This document shows positions 1,239-44,246 of a DNA stretch of 44,246 bases, one piece after another. The DNA is from a virus (lineage: Duplodnaviria > Heunggongvirae > Uroviricota > Caudoviricetes), in IMG/VR virus record IMGVR_UViG_3300045988_013393, positions 1 through 44,246 of that record; one strand, 5' to 3'. Position numbers and translations under genes: made by a program. Each line of letters starts with the position of its first letter. The first letter of the stretch is position 1. Under the pieces are notes generated by a model. The model searched no databases. It saw only the letters and a list, made by a program, of their open reading frames with translations, and was not told where the DNA came from.

Positions 1239-1272
1239 AACCCTCACTCCTCTGTCTCGTTTCGATAAGTGA

Positions 1273-1301
1273 ATAGTATCCTATTATGTTGGGGTGTGCA
1301 A
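1273..1301 (-). promoter_or_regulatory. Class B sigma70-like promoter (TTGCAC-N17-TACTAT) with embedded GAATAG-N4-CTATTA palindrome
   Basis: On minus strand TTGCAC (1301-1296), 17-bp spacer, TACTAT (1278-1273); ~60-bp element nearly identical to 22553-22581, 32481-32509 and 43865-43893. Confidence 0.5.
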
Positions 1302-4889: not shown

Positions 4890-4918
4890 TTGACAAGTGA
4901 ATAGTTCGCTATTATAGT
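4890..4918 (+). promoter_or_regulatory. Class A sigma70 promoter (TTGACA-N17-TATAGT) with GAATAG-ttcg-CTATTA palindrome in spacer
   Basis: Consensus -35; same architecture at 7009 and 10777. Confidence 0.6.
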
Positions 4919-7008: not shown

Positions 7009-7037
7009 TTGACACCTGAATAGTTAGCTATTATATT
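7009..7037 (+). promoter_or_regulatory. Class A sigma70 promoter (TTGACA-N17-TATATT) with GAATAG-ttag-CTATTA palindrome
   Basis: Consensus -35/-10 spacing, upstream of the SSB-like gene. Confidence 0.6.
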
Positions 7038-11033: not shown

Positions 11034-12460
11034 TTATGTCTAAATTTATCCGTCGAGAGTACCAGAAGCTCATGACTTCGTTCATGCTGCAACACCCGCG
11101 CTGTAATATTTGGGCCTCGATGGGCGCGGGCAAAAGTTCCGCAACGATGTGGGTTCTAAACCGCCTGTTCCGCAACGGGCAGCTTACGGAAGAGGACCGC
11201 GTGTTAATCCTCGCCCCGTTACGTGTTGCATCCGGTACGTGGCCCGCAGAACAAACTAAGTGGGGTTTCCCTTGTCTGAGTGTCGTCGATGCGACCGGTA
11301 GCGAGAGGCGCCGCATCGCGGCGCTGGAGTCGGACGCTAACGTGGTATGCACCAACTACGAAGTTATCGAGTGGCTGATTGACTACTACGGCAAAGACGA
11401 CTGGCCTTTTACGGTTATCGTTGCCGATGAGAGCACGAAACTGAAATCATTCCGCAGTCGTTCAGGCGGCAGCAAGCGGGCAAAGGCGCTTAGCAAGGTT
11501 GCGTTCGGTAAGGTCAAGCGTTTTATAAACCTGACGGGAACGCCATCACCTAACGGCCTCAAAGACTTGTGGGGCCAGAACTGGTTTATCGACGCTGGCG
11601 AGCGCCTCGGCTCATCGTACACGGCATTCACCGACCGCTGGTTCAACTCGGTACAGAAAGGCAAATCGGCTATGGCGCGCGAATACCACGCTCGCCCTGG
11701 TGCGGATAATGAAATTCACCAGAAGATGAAAGACATCAGCCTGACGATTGACGCCGCCGAGTGGTTTGGTTGCGAAGCGCCGATTATTGTACCGGTTGAA
11801 ATTGACCTGCCGAAGAAAGCACGTCAGGCGTACATCGATATGGAGGAAAAGTTATTCGCGGAACTGGAGAGCGGAGAAGTTGAAGCGGCTAACGCGGCTG
11901 CGAAGACATCTAAGTGTTTGCAGATTGCGTCCGGTGCCGTGTATGTATCAGGGCCAGATGGCGAAGCAACGAAAGACTGGGAGAAAGTGCATGACACGAA
12001 GCTGGACGCGCTGGAGTCCATTGTTGAAGAGTTGCAGGGTGCGCCGTTACTGGTGGCCTATCAGTTCAAGCATGAACTGGAGCGCATCCTTAAGAGATTC
12101 CCACAAGCCCAGGCGTTTGCCAAAGGGGCCAAGGGTAATAAGCAGATGGAAGCGTGGAACCGCGGTGAAATCGAGATTTTGTGCGTGCATCCCGCATCAG
12201 CCGGCCATGGTTTGAATTTACAGGACGGCGGCCATCATCTGGCGTTCATCTCGCAAGGCTGGAACCTTGAGCACTATTTGCAGGTCGTGGAGCGTATAGG
12301 TCCGGTCCGCCAGAAACAGGCAGGCCACGAACGACCGGTGTTCCTTTATCACATCGTTGCTAAAGACACGCTGGACGAGGTTGTTGCCGCGCGTACCGAC
12401 GAGAAGAAAACGGTGCAGGAAGAGTTGCTTAATTACATGAAGAGACGAGGTAAGAAATGA
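11030..12460 (+). CDS. SNF2/DEAD-like superfamily 2 helicase
   Basis: Walker A MGAGKSS, DExx box VADEST, C-terminal helicase domain. Confidence 0.7.
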   Translation: MIMSKFIRREYQKLMTSFMLQHPRCNIWASMGAGKSSATMWVLNRLFRNGQLTEEDRVLILAPLRVASGTWPAEQTKWGFPCLSVVDATGSERRRIAALESDANVVCTNYEVIEWLIDYYGKDDWPFTVIVADESTKLKSFRSRSGGSKRAKALSKVAFGKVKRFINLTGTPSPNGLKDLWGQNWFIDAGERLGSSYTAFTDRWFNSVQKGKSAMAREYHARPGADNEIHQKMKDISLTIDAAEWFGCEAPIIVPVEIDLPKKARQAYIDMEEKLFAELESGEVEAANAAAKTSKCLQIASGAVYVSGPDGEATKDWEKVHDTKLDALESIVEELQGAPLLVAYQFKHELERILKRFPQAQAFAKGAKGNKQMEAWNRGEIEILCVHPASAGHGLNLQDGGHHLAFISQGWNLEHYLQVVERIGPVRQKQAGHERPVFLYHIVAKDTLDEVVAARTDEKKTVQEELLNYMKRRGKK

Positions 12461-22552: not shown

Positions 22553-22581
22553 TTGCGCACCCCAACATAATAGGATACTAT
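22553..22581 (+). promoter_or_regulatory. Class B promoter (TTGCGC-N17-TACTAT) driving plus-strand accessory island
   Basis: Near-identical to the element at 1273-1301; conserved leader ttaactcaaacaggag before ATG 22623. Confidence 0.5.
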
Positions 22582-22622
22582 TCACTTACACCAACAATGT
22601 TAACTCAAACAGGAGCTACACC

Positions 22623-37052: not shown

Positions 37053-38303
37053 TTAAAGTGCGAAAGTCACCGGGATGTTGATTACTGGTTTAACCACCGG
37101 CATCTCGTAAACTACAGGATAGCCCAGGGCATCTGCCATATGGTCGATGATGCCGTCTTTGGATGGCTCCCCGTTATCGTCATATGCCTGCTGCTCCAGC
37201 GTCTTCGCTATCTCAGGGCATAAGTGGTCGTTAACCCACAGCTTACCTTTTTCCAGTGCGGTATTCACCGCTAAAACACGGTCTTTAACCGGCGGGTTGG
37301 CGGATTTAGCGCGAACATCGAACCCCGCCTGCTGTAGTAAGGCAATATCGGAGATTGACGCCGAGTTGGTTTTGCGGTTCTTGCCACTGGCGTCGGGGTA
37401 AACGACGATGCGGTGGCCTTGCGACTTCCACTTCTCGGTAATTACGCGCACGGTATCCGGCGTATCGAACAGGCCTTTCAGTTCTGCTACTGCATGCCAG
37501 CCGTCTTTACGTTGCACATACACGGCGCTGGCGTTCTTCGTAACGTTGAAGTCCTGCCCGATGTACAGCGTGTCGCCAGGTTGAATTGTCTCTTTGCTGC
37601 GGTGCTTACGGCGGTCGTATGCGTAATACACGCTGCCGGAGGTCAGGTTAACGAACTCACCGTTCAGATACGCGTTAATCAGTTGCGCGGGGTAAGTCTC
37701 TGTCAGCGAGCTGATGTAATCCGGCGGCAGGAACCGCGCATTCTCGTGTGTGGAGGCCTGCACCATAGAGTAACTTGGCGTAGGATTCTCTTTGAACTTG
37801 GAGTAGACGAACTTGAACCCTTCCGGCGTTGTGGTGACGGAGATGTGGTTAATTACACCCGGGATAACCAGACGCATACGGGCTACGATTTTGTTCCACG
37901 CCAGTTCAGCTTTCTCGCGACTCAGTACGTCCAACTCATCCACGACCGCCGCAGCGATTTTGAAACCAACTATCGAGCCGGGGTTATCCATCGAACGGCA
38001 GATAACCGTACCGAGCACCGTCTTACCGCGGGTAACAACGACTTCTTTGTCGCCAGATTTAACCAGCACATCGAGGCCGAGAAGGTTAGCCGCTTCCTCG
38101 AATGTCGGGTAGAAGATGTCGCGGATGGCAGGATACGTCGGACCGAAGTAGCCAAGGCGCGTACCGGGGTGCTTGAGCATGAACGTAAGCAGGTCCAGAC
38201 AGCCTACGAATGTCTTGCCGCTGCCGAAGCCCCCGACGTAGGCTTTGTATTTGTTATCGCAATTCAGGAACAGTGCCTGGGGCGCGGATAGCTGGATACT
38301 CAT
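37053..38303 (-). CDS. Terminase large subunit
   Basis: Walker A GGFGSGKT, Walker B VVDELD, C-terminal nuclease region; ATGA-coupled to the small subunit. Confidence 0.8.
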   Translation of the reverse strand: MSIQLSAPQALFLNCDNKYKAYVGGFGSGKTFVGCLDLLTFMLKHPGTRLGYFGPTYPAIRDIFYPTFEEAANLLGLDVLVKSGDKEVVVTRGKTVLGTVICRSMDNPGSIVGFKIAAAVVDELDVLSREKAELAWNKIVARMRLVIPGVINHISVTTTPEGFKFVYSKFKENPTPSYSMVQASTHENARFLPPDYISSLTETYPAQLINAYLNGEFVNLTSGSVYYAYDRRKHRSKETIQPGDTLYIGQDFNVTKNASAVYVQRKDGWHAVAELKGLFDTPDTVRVITEKWKSQGHRIVVYPDASGKNRKTNSASISDIALLQQAGFDVRAKSANPPVKDRVLAVNTALEKGKLWVNDHLCPEIAKTLEQQAYDDNGEPSKDGIIDHMADALGYPVVYEMPVVKPVINIPVTFAL

Positions 38304-38845
38304 TCCTCTACCTCGCCCATATTCGTTGTCACGATTTTACCTACAGGCTCCGCGACACTGAAAATAATCTCAGTCGGTGCTGTTTCTTCGGTGGACTCAA
38401 CAGGTTTCTCTTTGCTTAAGCCCAGCTTAGCCGCAGCAAACGTAGCGGAGATACCGGCGGCGCCTGTCTCAGTGAAATACGCCTCTTCCAGCGCCTGAGC
38501 GGTTTCATAGGCTTCTGCAAACGCCGGAATCTCACGCAACCACAGCTTAATAATAGGGATAGTTACGCCGATGTGTAAGGCGAAGCGGGCCAGTGACGGG
38601 GGTTTATCCTGAATCAGCGGGCGTTCGTCACCCTTGGACGTAGGTACGAGTTCCCATGAGTTGCGGTCAAAGAACCGGATTAACTCGTCGCAATAGTCCG
38701 GGTCCCACAATGCCGCAGAATTACGGGATGACTGGTAAAGGCTCTGTTTACCCCGCGGTCGTTTACGGCGACGGTTGGCACTAACAGCCTCTTCATGTGC
38801 AGCTTGCACCACCTCAGGTGATGGTTGCTTAAGTGTAAGTTTCAT
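38300..38845 (-). CDS. Terminase small subunit (start at ATG 38845; ORF track extends to 38884)
   Basis: Directly upstream of and coupled to the large subunit; HTH-like segment; GGGGG RBS before MKLTLKQ. Confidence 0.55.
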   Translation of the reverse strand: MKLTLKQPSPEVVQAAHEEAVSANRRRKRPRGKQSLYQSSRNSAALWDPDYCDELIRFFDRNSWELVPTSKGDERPLIQDKPPSLARFALHIGVTIPIIKLWLREIPAFAEAYETAQALEEAYFTETGAAGISATFAAAKLGLSKEKPVESTEETAPTEIIFSVAEPVGKIVTTNMGEVEE

Positions 38846-40137: not shown

Positions 40138-40301
40138 CACTTAACCTCAACATAATCGGTAGTAAGGAATACAATTTCGCCGTTAACAATCAAAAGCGGC
40201 GTATCTTCTAGGACACTTTTAACCTCTACAAAATACCCGCCGTAACTGTTATCTATAAACAGAACGTCTCCAGGTACTAAATCTGCGGCTAACTTGCTCA
40301 T
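40137..40301 (-). CDS. Small ORF (54 aa), resembles ORF 10839
   Basis: ATG start; DLVPGDVLF...VEVK resembles DIVPGDMIF...LYVKG of 10839-11033. Confidence 0.3.
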   Translation of the reverse strand: MSKLAADLVPGDVLFIDNSYGGYFVEVKSVLEDTPLLIVNGEIVFLTTDYVEVK

Positions 40302-40546
40302 TTCTTCTCTCCTGCATAAGCTGCTTTCAGTGTCTGCATCGCGGCGAACCAGAACGCGTCCGCTGGAATGCTGTTGCTCAGGTTACTAACGGCGATACGT
40401 GCCATCAGTTGCGCGTCTTTGAATGCCTCGGTATCCGTGATTTTCATTGGAAATTTACGCATAGCAACCGGGTCGTTATCCATAGTCCATGCGATGCATT
40501 TAGCTTCAAGTTCCTCGGTTATTTCTACCGTTGATACGTTACTCAT
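40298..40546 (-). CDS. Hypothetical protein (82 aa)
   Basis: ATG start; first gene after the long non-coding region. Confidence 0.4.
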   Translation of the reverse strand: MSNVSTVEITEELEAKCIAWTMDNDPVAMRKFPMKITDTEAFKDAQLMARIAVSNLSNSIPADAFWFAAMQTLKAAYAGEKK

Positions 40547-40628
40547 TTCTCTCTACTCCGTTCTCGTTGTCGATGGAGTAAATATAATAGGGTCGAAGGT
40601 AATAGTCAACTAGTCATTGCGGAAAATA

Positions 40629-40662
40629 GATAAAAAAAATCCCGGCTGGGTCAGGGCCGGGA
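40629..40662 (-). terminator. Intrinsic terminator on minus strand (ATCCCGGC-loop-GCCGGGAT + T8)
   Basis: 8-bp stem followed by eight T on minus strand (plus A-run 40631-40638). Confidence 0.6.
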
Positions 40663-40702
40663 TAAAACTGGAGAGTAGAGGGATGAAGCAGGAGGTGATT
40701 TA

Positions 40703-40731
40703 AGTATCGTCGGATTAGTCTTAGGTGTCAA
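40703..40731 (-). promoter_or_regulatory. Candidate promoter (TTGACA-N17-GATACT) for a short minus-strand transcript
   Basis: Consensus -35 on minus strand; would give a ~65-nt pyrimidine-rich RNA ending at terminator 40629-40662. Confidence 0.25.
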
Positions 40732-40857
40732 CAGAGATTCTCCGGCACGCGTTACCGCACTTTGGCCCGACCTTGTTACGGGTCCGCGGGGGTGATGGTA
40801 CCCGGGATGCCCTCAATGTTGTTTAATCTTCTGTTGCCGTTAGTCTATCAAACTACG

Positions 40858-40890
40858 GACAAAATAAAACCCGGATTCGCGGTCCGGGTT
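40858..40890 (-). terminator. Intrinsic terminator on minus strand (AACCCGGA-ttcgcgg-TCCGGGTT + TTTTATTTT)
   Basis: Perfect 8-bp stem with T-rich tail, downstream of endolysin. Confidence 0.55.
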
Positions 40891-41067
40891 TCGGGTGGTG
40901 CAAGCACAAACAGCGTAGGGCTATTATTCCCCGTAACCCGCTTGCTCGTCAATATCGTCACGGGATTTAACCGGGTTGGTGAACTCTTGCAGTGCCATAA
41001 CGGCCTCCATTAGCAAATACGAAAAACTTGGCCTAACCAGAATACTACACGTCCCAGTTCTCTTCCA

Positions 41068-41571
41068 TCATTTAACAGCCCTCCCAATAGCCTCCGCCTC
41101 CTGCCACGGTTTACCGTCGAACAGCGCCAGACGACCAGCTACGCGACGGCGTAGGCCGAGCACAGGCTCGAGTTTACCGGTTTTCGGGTTGCGTTGGTTA
41201 ATGAACTGACTCATCTTATGCCGTAAGGTTGTGATGTCCCCCTGCCGTAGCGCCTTACCAGTTCCAGTAGTAGCCGCAATCACGCCAGTCCCTGCGTTGA
41301 ACACCAGGTCGACAACGGCATCAAACTGAGCCTGGGTCAGTGAGGGGTGCGCGACTTCATCGACTGCTTTCACCGCCCACTGCATATCACGGTTCAGTAA
41401 CAGCAACCCCTGGCCTTCGGTAATCTTCTGGCCTTCGTACACATCCGGTCCGGTATGGCCCCAGCCTATAGTCCAGTATTTCTCGTTCTTTGTTGCTTTG
41501 TATGCAGTTCCGCGAAACTTCTCCCACGCCTTTTTGAACTGCAGCCCATTATCTGAAATATTTCGAGACAC
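41068..41571 (-). CDS. Endolysin, lysozyme-like (GTG start at 41571; ORF track extends to 41622)
   Basis: Lysozyme-like catalytic region (AWEKFRG...YWTIGWGHTG); GGAGGA RBS before the GTG. Confidence 0.65.
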   Translation of the reverse strand: MSRNISDNGLQFKKAWEKFRGTAYKATKNEKYWTIGWGHTGPDVYEGQKITEGQGLLLLNRDMQWAVKAVDEVAHPSLTQAQFDAVVDLVFNAGTGVIAATTGTGKALRQGDITTLRHKMSQFINQRNPKTGKLEPVLGLRRRVAGRLALFDGKPWQEAEAIGRAVK

Positions 41572-43833: not shown

Positions 43834-43864
43834 ATCCTGTCTCTCCTCTCGTTTGTGTAAATGA

Positions 43865-43893
43865 ATAGTAGCCTATTCTATCTTAGTGTGCAA
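43865..43893 (-). promoter_or_regulatory. Class B promoter (TTGCAC-N17-TACTAT) with perfect GAATAG-gcta-CTATTC palindrome
   Basis: Aligns with the element at 1273-1301 including the downstream leader; drives the minus-strand small-gene array towards the lysis cassette. Confidence 0.5.
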
Positions 43894-44185: not shown

Positions 44186-44246
44186 CTATTGACCTGTTAC
44201 ACCACCTGTTACACCACCTGTTACACCACCTGTTACACCACCTGTT
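44186..44246 (-). CDS. C-terminal part of (GVTG)n repeat protein; stop at 44188-44186
   Basis: Minus-strand GVTG frame through the repeat ends with Gln then TAG just outside the array; joins ORF 1-216 only if the replicon is circular/permuted. Confidence 0.35.
   Translation of the reverse strand, partial: TGGVTGGVTGGVTGGVTGQ
44192..44246. repeat. Tandem direct repeat ACCTGTTACACC, 4 full copies plus 7 bp, continuous with array at 1-84
   Basis: Same unit as window start; window ends mid-unit. Confidence 0.9.

Follow-up and report, generated by a model that had tools for sequence, protein, structure and literature searches.

A conserved promoter-terminator-promoter cassette with a candidate small RNA between the lysis genes and the terminase operon of Kagunavirus and related phages

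Introduction

What is kept by a virulent phage in a long stretch between the end of its endolysin gene and the start of its next operon? This question is raised by the gap at positions 40547-41067 of the IMG/VR virus record IMGVR_UViG_3300045988_013393, the whole of which (44,246 nucleotides) is called the window in this study. By megablast the window has been assigned to Kagunavirus (Guernseyvirinae), with Escherichia phage Ivi as its closest relative. All the genes near the gap lie on the minus strand, and from the gene order around it the gap separates the lysis cassette from the packaging/structural operon. A first-pass annotation had seen no convincing open reading frame (ORF) in this gap and had proposed a small regulatory RNA or else a packaging or replication site. 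In our analysis, 183 bp of it (40550-40732, minus strand) have been identified as a predicted regulatory cassette, conserved at the boundary of the lysis operon and the small-gene/terminase/structural operon, and this cassette most likely specifies an undescribed phage small RNA (sRNA), bounded by a promoter and a terminator.

The Guernseyvirinae (Kagunavirus, Jerseyvirus and Cornellvirus) are among the most often isolated phages of E. coli and Salmonella and are in use for phage therapy, biocontrol and synthetic biology, with genomes that are annotated as protein genes only. In our literature search no paper was found describing this element, and none on sRNAs or transcription start site (TSS) maps for Kagunavirus or Jerseyvirus. 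The genome papers give the promoters and the terminator as separate predictions, which are not joined into one unit.

Results and Discussion

A conserved cassette after the endolysin gene

The order within the cassette is promoter P1, an RNA of ~64 nt, terminator T2, promoter P2 and a 5' untranslated region (5'UTR), with the following features.

40703..40731, minus strand: predicted promoter P1, TTGACA (40731-40726), 17 nt, GATACT (40708-40703), from pattern scan
40632..40696, minus strand: candidate small RNA of ~64 nt, with ends placed by the promoter and terminator geometry
40632..40663, minus strand: predicted terminator T2, 8-bp stem (40663-40656/40646-40639), 9-nt loop, U8 (40639-40632)
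40581..40609, minus strand: predicted promoter P2, TTGACT (40609-40604), 17 nt, TATATT (40586-40581), from pattern scan
40547..40574, minus strand: operon 5'UTR (AUCGACAACGAGAACGGAGUAGAGAGAA), from a putative TSS to the start codon

The gap was searched by blastn against 50,697 phage records and matches were obtained in 445 of them, with only the query positions 1-186 (40547-40732 of the window) being generally matched. The identity of this block is 94-97% in Kagunavirus and 77-80% in Jerseyvirus. The small terminase subunit gene terS at 60% identity or more to that of the window is present in 447 records; hence, practically every Kagunavirus and Jerseyvirus genome has the block, and the covariance model has found one copy of the element per genome. 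The conserved stretch opens precisely with the -35 hexamer of P1 and closes at the start codon; the sequence on both flanks is mosaic. At least five contexts are seen upstream of the P1 -35 among the relatives: the endolysin stop codon lies inside the hexamer in fBC-Eco01 (GGT-TGA-CA), the endolysin end is found there in Jerseyvirus, the stop of a 24-aa gene in phiWAO78-1, a further terminator (T1) abutting P1 in Schulenburg, Golestan and EM1, and a 115-bp module (module d) in this window, Ivi and EcoPhCCP1. The downstream edge is equally mosaic, the 82-aa gene at 40298..40546 of the window being replaced in relatives by several different first genes after the same UTR. As the conservation is confined to 40547-40732, the remainder of the gap (40733-41067) is mosaic filler. 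The check on related genomes proposed at the first pass for the whole gap has thus found conservation in 40550-40732 and variation in 40733-41067; neither this restriction nor P2 had been recognised there.

The conservation was expressed as the mean majority-base frequency in a set of 53 distinct cassettes, which were taken both from phage records and from contigs of IMG/VR. It is 0.51 in the upstream flank of P1, 0.997 in the P1 -35, 0.82 in its spacer and 0.997 again in the -10; the initial transcribed bases are at 0.77, the CAUCCCUCU core of the RNA at 0.99, the T2 stems at 0.95-0.96 and the U-tract at 1.0. For P2 the values are 0.99 (-35), 0.81 (spacer) and 1.0 (-10), and the 5'UTR stands at 0.96.

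P1 was recovered by pattern scan where the first-pass annotation had placed it. It matches the sigma-70 consensus at 10 of the 12 hexamer positions and is the sole exact match to the TTGACA-17-GATACT pattern in the window. Its -35 is retained across the differing upstream contexts, and its spacer is fixed at 17 nt in all the cassettes, including one lineage (L024) with a wholly different spacer sequence. Conserved hexamers at a fixed distance, with a spacer sequence that drifts, are the signature of two working promoters, P1 and P2. P2, which lies 23 bp after the T2 U-tract, is the predicted promoter of the small-gene/terminase/structural operon; it shares its -35 and -10 (CTATTATATT) with strong promoters at 4890 and 7009, and the T-tract of T2 may sit at the position of a possible UP element of P2. 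In the 5'UTR, 14 of the 28 positions are invariant although the following gene differs between phages. The counts of such sites are not above the shuffled expectation (promoter-like 5 versus 3.6, terminator-like 2 versus 2.8); what lends credibility to the promoter and terminator sites is conservation and not number.

T2 was also located on the minus strand as first proposed, by a fold of -13.8 kcal/mol (z = -2.56) in which AUCCCGGC is paired with GCCGGGAU; the 9-nt loop exceeds the limit of 8 set in the pattern scanner, which for this reason did not report the hairpin. The comparison of structure across related phages, which had been suggested as a check, has come out clearly for this hairpin: across 27 sequences from relatives the stem is 98.3% paired, as against 23-50% when the partner is slid, and three compensatory pairs are present, with GGC/GCC in Kagunavirus versus GGUAA/UUACC in Jerseyvirus. 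T2 is predicted to be the universal terminator of this locus and in many relatives the sole terminator after the endolysin, so the lysis-operon transcripts are predicted to end here as well in phages whose cassette directly follows the endolysin gene.

Outside these phages, a search of complete E. coli genomes (E up to 10) gave neither a homologue nor a long complement of the element; it excludes matches of at least ~18 nt only. The core pattern gave scattered unrelated matches, none of them in Enterobacteriaceae, among 185,579 one-per-species bacterial genomes. In the Rfam 15 scan no family reached its gathering threshold, the best matches of the permissive scan being to the terminator only (RF02278 at 24.7 versus 50 bits, RF02837 at 19.5 versus 49.5 bits), and no tRNA or tmRNA was found in the search for these. 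An unrelated, GC-rich IMG/VR contig of 56.9 kb (L056 289-400) carries TTGACA-17-CATACT followed by CCCUCUGCGUCACGCAAGGCGCAUCCCUCUCUGAUUCAA and a terminator; this unit resembles an analogous short RNA bearing CCCUCU, and the number of matches is also compatible with a chance match of the search pattern.

A candidate small RNA between P1 and T2

The 5' half of the candidate RNA reads CACCUCCUG...CAUCCCUCU...CUCUCC and is followed by AGUUUUAU, the hairpin of T2 and the U8 tail. Over the first 34 nt no pairing is seen in the minimum free energy structure or in the centroid, and 82% of these bases are pyrimidines, which puts the stretch in the top 0.07% of same-length windows of this genome; as a whole, the pyrimidine content ranks within the top 0.07-0.1% of genome windows. 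The motifs CUCCU, CAUCCCUCU and CUCUCC are anti-Shine-Dalgarno-like, being complementary to purine tracts of the Shine-Dalgarno (SD) type, and the 10 nt AUCACCUCCU recur unchanged at the 3' end of E. coli 16S rRNA, so the likeness to an anti-SD sequence reported at the first pass has been borne out. An Hfq-binding module consists of a U-rich stretch before the terminator hairpin and a 3' tail of at least 6-7 U. In the candidate RNA the U-rich stretch is AGUUUUAU (UUUA in Jerseyvirus) and the tail is U7-U14 in all the copies; hence, the RNA has the sequence features of such a module as well as those of a conserved single-stranded seed.

The body of the RNA differs between Kagunavirus and Jerseyvirus by indels of +2 and -4 nt, and neither AUG nor GUG is present in it. 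As these indels are not multiples of three and AUG is lacking, the RNA is regarded as non-coding. The CAUCCCUCU core at 0.99, compared to 0.81-0.82 for the promoter spacers, indicates that the sequence itself is under selection, as RNA or as DNA. The small-RNA proposal has therefore been strengthened by the presence of the unit in 445 records, by hexamers at 0.997 around a spacer at 0.82, by the covarying hairpin and by the non-coding nature of the body; expression is what we infer from these features.

The same layout in Cornellvirus and Hafnia phage TS33

No copy of the cassette was detectable by blastn in Cornellvirus (Shemara and 25 other records). The same layout is however present in this genus, with TTGGAC-17-TATACT overlapping the endolysin end, followed by AAAUAUUCCACCCAGCCAGCCUUU, a hairpin and U8, which form a short C-rich RNA of a different sequence, and after this terminator by TTGCAT-17-TATAGT and the first small gene. 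Five Cornellvirus sequences were compared: all agree in the 5' part of the RNA, and their hairpins fall into two forms that differ by compensatory changes.

In Hafnia phage TS33, two promoters resembling P1 and P2 and a terminator resembling T2 have been retained. The slot from the first promoter to the T2/P2-like elements (L135 910-1720) holds a non-coding stretch of ~190 nt with its own terminator and a homing endonuclease gene of the HNH type (HNH_3 + AP2). Within the non-coding stretch lies ACAGGAGGTGATTT, the exact complement of the 5' end of the Kagunavirus RNA; it is a perfect SD sequence, and no start codon stands at the proper spacing from it.

Possible functions of the unit

The reading which we favour, and to which we give about an even chance, is that of a trans-acting riboregulator that occludes ribosome-binding sites. 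The host sigma-70 RNA polymerase would start at P1 (~40696), transcribe ~64 nt (to ~40633) and release the RNA at T2. The RNA would then act in trans by pairing, probably with Hfq, to the purine-rich, SD-like ribosome-binding regions of host or phage mRNAs and would lower the translation of the paired messages. It is favoured because the build of the RNA matches that of Hfq-type sRNAs and its seed motifs complement SD-like tracts.

Several observations weigh against this riboregulator. Scans of the phage genomes gave no targets above chance or common to the genera, and in a three-genus search (top 40 sites per genome, with flank homology) no site was common to Kagunavirus, Jerseyvirus and Cornellvirus. 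Pairing of the RNA with the adjacent 5'UTR, an idea of the P1 c4 type for which 8-9 bp can be drawn by eye in Kagunavirus and Jerseyvirus, was rejected: it ranks 10 of 85 initiation regions in Schulenburg and is equalled by 158 of 1000 seed shuffles. A pairing at the terL start (AGAGGAAUG, 38301-38309) is confined to Kagunavirus. The 16S-like 10-mer is specific to Kagunavirus, GCUCCUG being found in Jerseyvirus and CACUCCUUG in two Kagunavirus variants. The RNAs of Cornellvirus and TS33 share little sequence with that of the window, so what all of them have in common is the order promoter-terminator-promoter and not a single RNA sequence, and the homing endonuclease gene in the TS33 slot makes the unit readable also as a moron-like slot. 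The published Kagunavirus transcriptome study is gene-level only (PMC12645636).

Other candidate pairings and structures were also examined. In a genome-wide duplex scan of the window the best non-self site is at 11854 (+), within an ORF, and none was notable at start sites. If the C/U tract is folded back on the purine-rich stretch that closes the endolysin ORF, an 11-bp helix results in fBC-Eco01, with z values of -1.2, -1.0 and +0.3; it is absent in AG11 and in the window is mismatched, distant and cut off by T1, and was rejected. The likeness of GCUCCUUUA to boxA/nut in Jerseyvirus is lost in Kagunavirus by a CCAG insertion, and the hairpin is a terminator; this likeness was rejected as well.

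Since only the layout is universal, an explanation by transcription itself, or by a moron slot, stays alive, though we consider it appreciably less probable than the riboregulator. It takes the locus as an operon boundary only, in which T2 closes the lysis operon, P2 opens the next one, P1 matters through its transcription and the RNA is a by-product; in its variants, polymerase from P1 which is freed at T2, ~20 bp before P2, would re-initiate at P2, or P1-T2 would be an emptied moron slot. This fits with the missing RNA target, with the conservation of the T2-P2 spacing and of the intervening ATCT..T-rich stretch, and with the universal P1/x/T2/P2 layout in which x ranges from 22 nt to ~190 nt plus a homing endonuclease gene. 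A by-product would however be free to drift, whereas CAUCCCUCU is held at 0.99 against 0.81-0.82 for the spacers and in Cornellvirus the 5' part, unlike the hairpin, does not vary; a relic would not retain near-perfect hexamers in 445 records, and in the window the whole unit is kept although T1 already stops the lysis transcript. A regulated leader is unlikely. P1 would here be a real late promoter and T2 an attenuator overridden by a phage factor, as in lambda PR'-tR' with Q and the 6S RNA, and the short RNA would be the terminated leader. Terminated leaders can be sRNAs, for example StxS in Stx phages, and a strong, constitutive-looking promoter with a strong terminator within ~65 nt just before the packaging/structural operon agrees with such a scheme. 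However, the conserved strong P2 directly after T2 makes read-through unnecessary, and, unlike in lambda, the late operon could be entered without passing T2. The curated genomes of Schulenburg, AG11 and Shemara, in which many small ORFs are without an assigned function, have no annotated antiterminator; the initial TAAATC/TAAACC is a poor -10-like pause element because its final T is lacking, and no nut- or put-like structure is found in the fold of the RNA.

The remaining explanations place the function in the DNA or in a peptide. A terminase pac site or an origin element is highly improbable, although a conserved non-coding block ~1.7 kb upstream of terS invites it and a few records (EnJE1, LP31 and three Cornellvirus records) begin or end inside the block. 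These record ends do not coincide between phages, a single copy of the core motif is present in the genome, with neither repeats nor iterons, and the obvious repeat array of the genome lies elsewhere. Moreover, conservation peaks on the promoter hexamers, the hairpin and the U-tract, which suits transcription signals rather than a protein-binding array. P22 pac lies within the terS gene, and terS of the window is P22-like. The packaging or replication site suggested at the first pass has thus found no support. A small protein encoded over the RNA and terminator is hardly credible. Such ORFs are annotated in relatives (AG11_59A, 39 aa, L004 1502-1621; Ivi ECPH5_11, 38 aa, L001 1719-1835), and the window has a TTG-started frame of 26 codons at 40731-40651; but the frame is broken between the genera by the +2/-4 nt indels, has no ATG and no SD, and its start codon would be the -35 hexamer itself, while the SHWT1 annotation (SHWT1_47, L049 747-857) is on the opposite strand. 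In view of the indels and the lack of AUG, the ORFs of AG11, Ivi and SHWT1 over the RNA are likely mis-annotations and not genes.

A wider action of the RNA may also be imagined, in which it would be an abundant mimic of the 16S anti-SD tail; this is quite improbable. As a mimic, the RNA would be transcribed, by way of its near-consensus promoter, from each replicating copy of the phage genome and would mask strong SDs of the AGGAGGUGAU type transcriptome-wide instead of one target, thereby shifting ribosomes between host and phage messages or timing the synthesis of late and lysis proteins. A second novel option would be a polymerase hand-off device made up of P1-T2-P2, with polymerase released at T2 re-initiating at P2.

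If the riboregulator is confirmed, a small RNA would be known that a strictly virulent lineage of phages has conserved universally. To our knowledge few sRNAs are known from virulent phages, so the candidate would be a tractable addition to them and, with a 183-bp cassette, one promoter mutation and a 9-nt core, would give a handle on translation reprogramming or late-gene timing. Further, the promoter and leader of the packaging/structural operon are delimited by the cassette, as is a module-exchange hotspot, and both are useful for engineering these phages.

Comparison with known systems

The Hfq-dependent enterobacterial sRNA CyaR (RyeE) represses its targets by pairing with their SD regions. 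It shares with the candidate a short length, a promoter of its own and an intrinsic terminator, and its seed has CACCUCCU, the 16S anti-SD sequence (E. coli cyaR). There is however no homology past this 8-mer and no CyaR match by cmscan; the motif of CyaR lies in a hairpin loop whereas that of the phage candidate is at the unstructured 5' end, and CyaR is a CRP-controlled host gene while the candidate is encoded by a virulent phage. With the lambda PR'-tR' 6S RNA and StxS, which is derived from it, the unit shares a strong phage promoter, a nearby intrinsic terminator and a short RNA beside lysis/late genes. The lambda unit lies upstream of the lysis genes, whereas the present one is downstream of the endolysin; late expression in lambda proceeds by Q antitermination through tR' with no second promoter, whereas P2 follows here, and no Q-like gene is annotated in Schulenburg, AG11 and Shemara.

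The sRNAs of the MicL/DapZ type, which lie in 3'UTRs and have a promoter of their own within the upstream gene, are resembled in fBC-Eco01, AG11 and Cornellvirus, where the promoter overlaps the endolysin ORF end and the terminator is shared with the mRNA. In the window, by contrast, a 335-bp insert with its own terminator separates the unit from the endolysin, which makes it a free-standing predicted gene. The Betaproteobacteria toxic sRNA RF02278 is the best Rfam match and likewise has a UCUCC-type motif in a short RNA followed by a GC-rich terminator, but the match is almost entirely to the terminator and the candidate is not a member of this family. Phage morons are similarly autonomous promoter-terminator units between gene blocks, and the TS33 slot carries an HNH endonuclease gene; the present unit, unlike them, has no ORF and is universal in the lineage instead of sporadic. 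The RNA would thus act like an anti-SD-seeded sRNA of the CyaR type, is placed in relatives like a 3'UTR sRNA and has a superficial likeness to the 6S unit of lambda. As there is neither an Rfam match nor homology, it is assigned to none of CyaR, the 3'UTR sRNAs and lambda 6S, and is put forward as a candidate phage-encoded sRNA family.

The variable insert and a 24-aa gene

The variable part of the gap, 40733-41067, contains the following features.

40858..40892, minus strand: predicted terminator T1, stem 40892-40866, tail UUUUAUUUU to 40861, from scanner and folding
40998 (ATG) to 40924 (stop), minus strand: 24-aa gene MALQEFTNPVKSRDDIDEQAGYGE, SD GGAGG at 41008-41004, 5 nt upstream
41045..41071, minus strand: 8-codon micro-ORF MMEENWDV, overlapping the endolysin stop (ATGA)
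40733..40847, minus strand: filler module d of ~115 bp, found only in the window, Ivi, EcoPhCCP1 and fEg-Eco19

T1 was located on the minus strand, as earlier proposed, by both the scanner and folding (-14.4 to -15.8 kcal/mol). It is the predicted terminator of the lysis/small-gene transcript in this phage and belongs to the variable insert, its hairpin being absent in fBC-Eco01, AG11 and EcoPhCCP1. The earlier description of two tandem terminators is correct in that both are present and misleading in that T1 lies in a variable insert which many relatives lack, whereas T2 is universal.

The statement that the gap has no convincing ORF does not hold for 40998-40924, in view of its GGAGG SD, its excess of synonymous changes and its homologues. 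Compared to the phiWAO78-1 copy, the 24-aa gene has 7 synonymous and 2 non-synonymous codon differences, and compared to SeSz-2, over the first 18 codons, 6 synonymous and 3 non-synonymous. By tblastn the peptide was found in eight phage records, including Ivi, phiWAO78-1, vB_kpnM_D1 and four Skatevirus, and is annotated in none of them. The homologue of Skatevirus SeSz-2, MALQEFTDPVKSRKDMDESVDEYEGC (L055 1501-1581), has its own SD and terminator and stands at an operon end. The peptide has no match to a PHROG family. On this comparative evidence the 24-aa ORF is judged to be a real, unannotated micro-gene, and is a small addition to the catalogue of phage micro-proteins.

At the site of the 8-codon micro-ORF the relatives have MDEYEGV or MMDEFDGF, and between Schulenburg and phiWAO78-1 the sole differences are synonymous (TAC/TAT and GGT/GGC). 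In view of its likeness to the C-terminal ...VDEYEGC of the small protein in SeSz-2, the micro-ORF is probably what recombination has left of a small gene's 3' end. In module d no frame with a start codon shows a coding signature, there is no Rfam match, and no fold signal was obtained over 40733-40860 (z = +0.25). A second promoter-terminator unit ending at T1 (TTGACG, 18 nt, AATAAT, 40952-40923) was rejected; this promoter lies inside the 24-aa gene and is lost in Golestan, which has T1. In Schulenburg (L002) and EM1 (L052) another insert of ~110 bp, edged by the inverted repeat TAAGCC...GGCTTA, runs from the endolysin to T1; standing in place of the 24-aa gene, it may represent a small structured element.

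Neighbouring genes and genome ends

The genes around the gap are listed below in the order of transcription.

42122-41549, minus strand: two holins, upstream of the endolysin
41622-41068, minus strand: endolysin, directly before the gap
from 40546, minus strand: run of small genes after the gap and before terS/terL
40298..40546, minus strand: first gene of the downstream operon, 82 aa, function not assigned, a listed ORF with a match to phrog_2180
38884-38300, minus strand: terS, P22-like, ~1.7 kb from the conserved block
37053-38303, minus strand: terL, after terS

The terL gene is mosaic in the subfamily, with 99% identity to K1G and Schulenburg and only ~54% to the Jerseyviruses and some Kagunaviruses, for example Bas75; terS, unlike terL, is 80-98% identical across Kagunavirus and Jerseyvirus. 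A family of strong promoters is present at 1261-1287 (+), 4890-4918 (+), 7009-7037 (+), 22567-22593 (-) and 43853-43879 (+), with an inverted repeat in the spacer/-10 region (TTGACA..TGAATAGT...CTATTATA.T). The fBC-Eco01 paper ascribed this motif to a phage RNA polymerase. The inverted repeat resembles an operator for a Cro-like HTH regulator, and P2 has the -35 and -10 of the family without the GAATAGT half. Perfect 12-bp tandem repeats (ACCTGTTACACC) are found at 1-85 (7.1 copies) and 44192-44246 (4.6 copies). Their presence at both ends indicates that the window is a circular or permuted genome cut within one array of ~140 bp, which may represent iterons or an assembly breakpoint.

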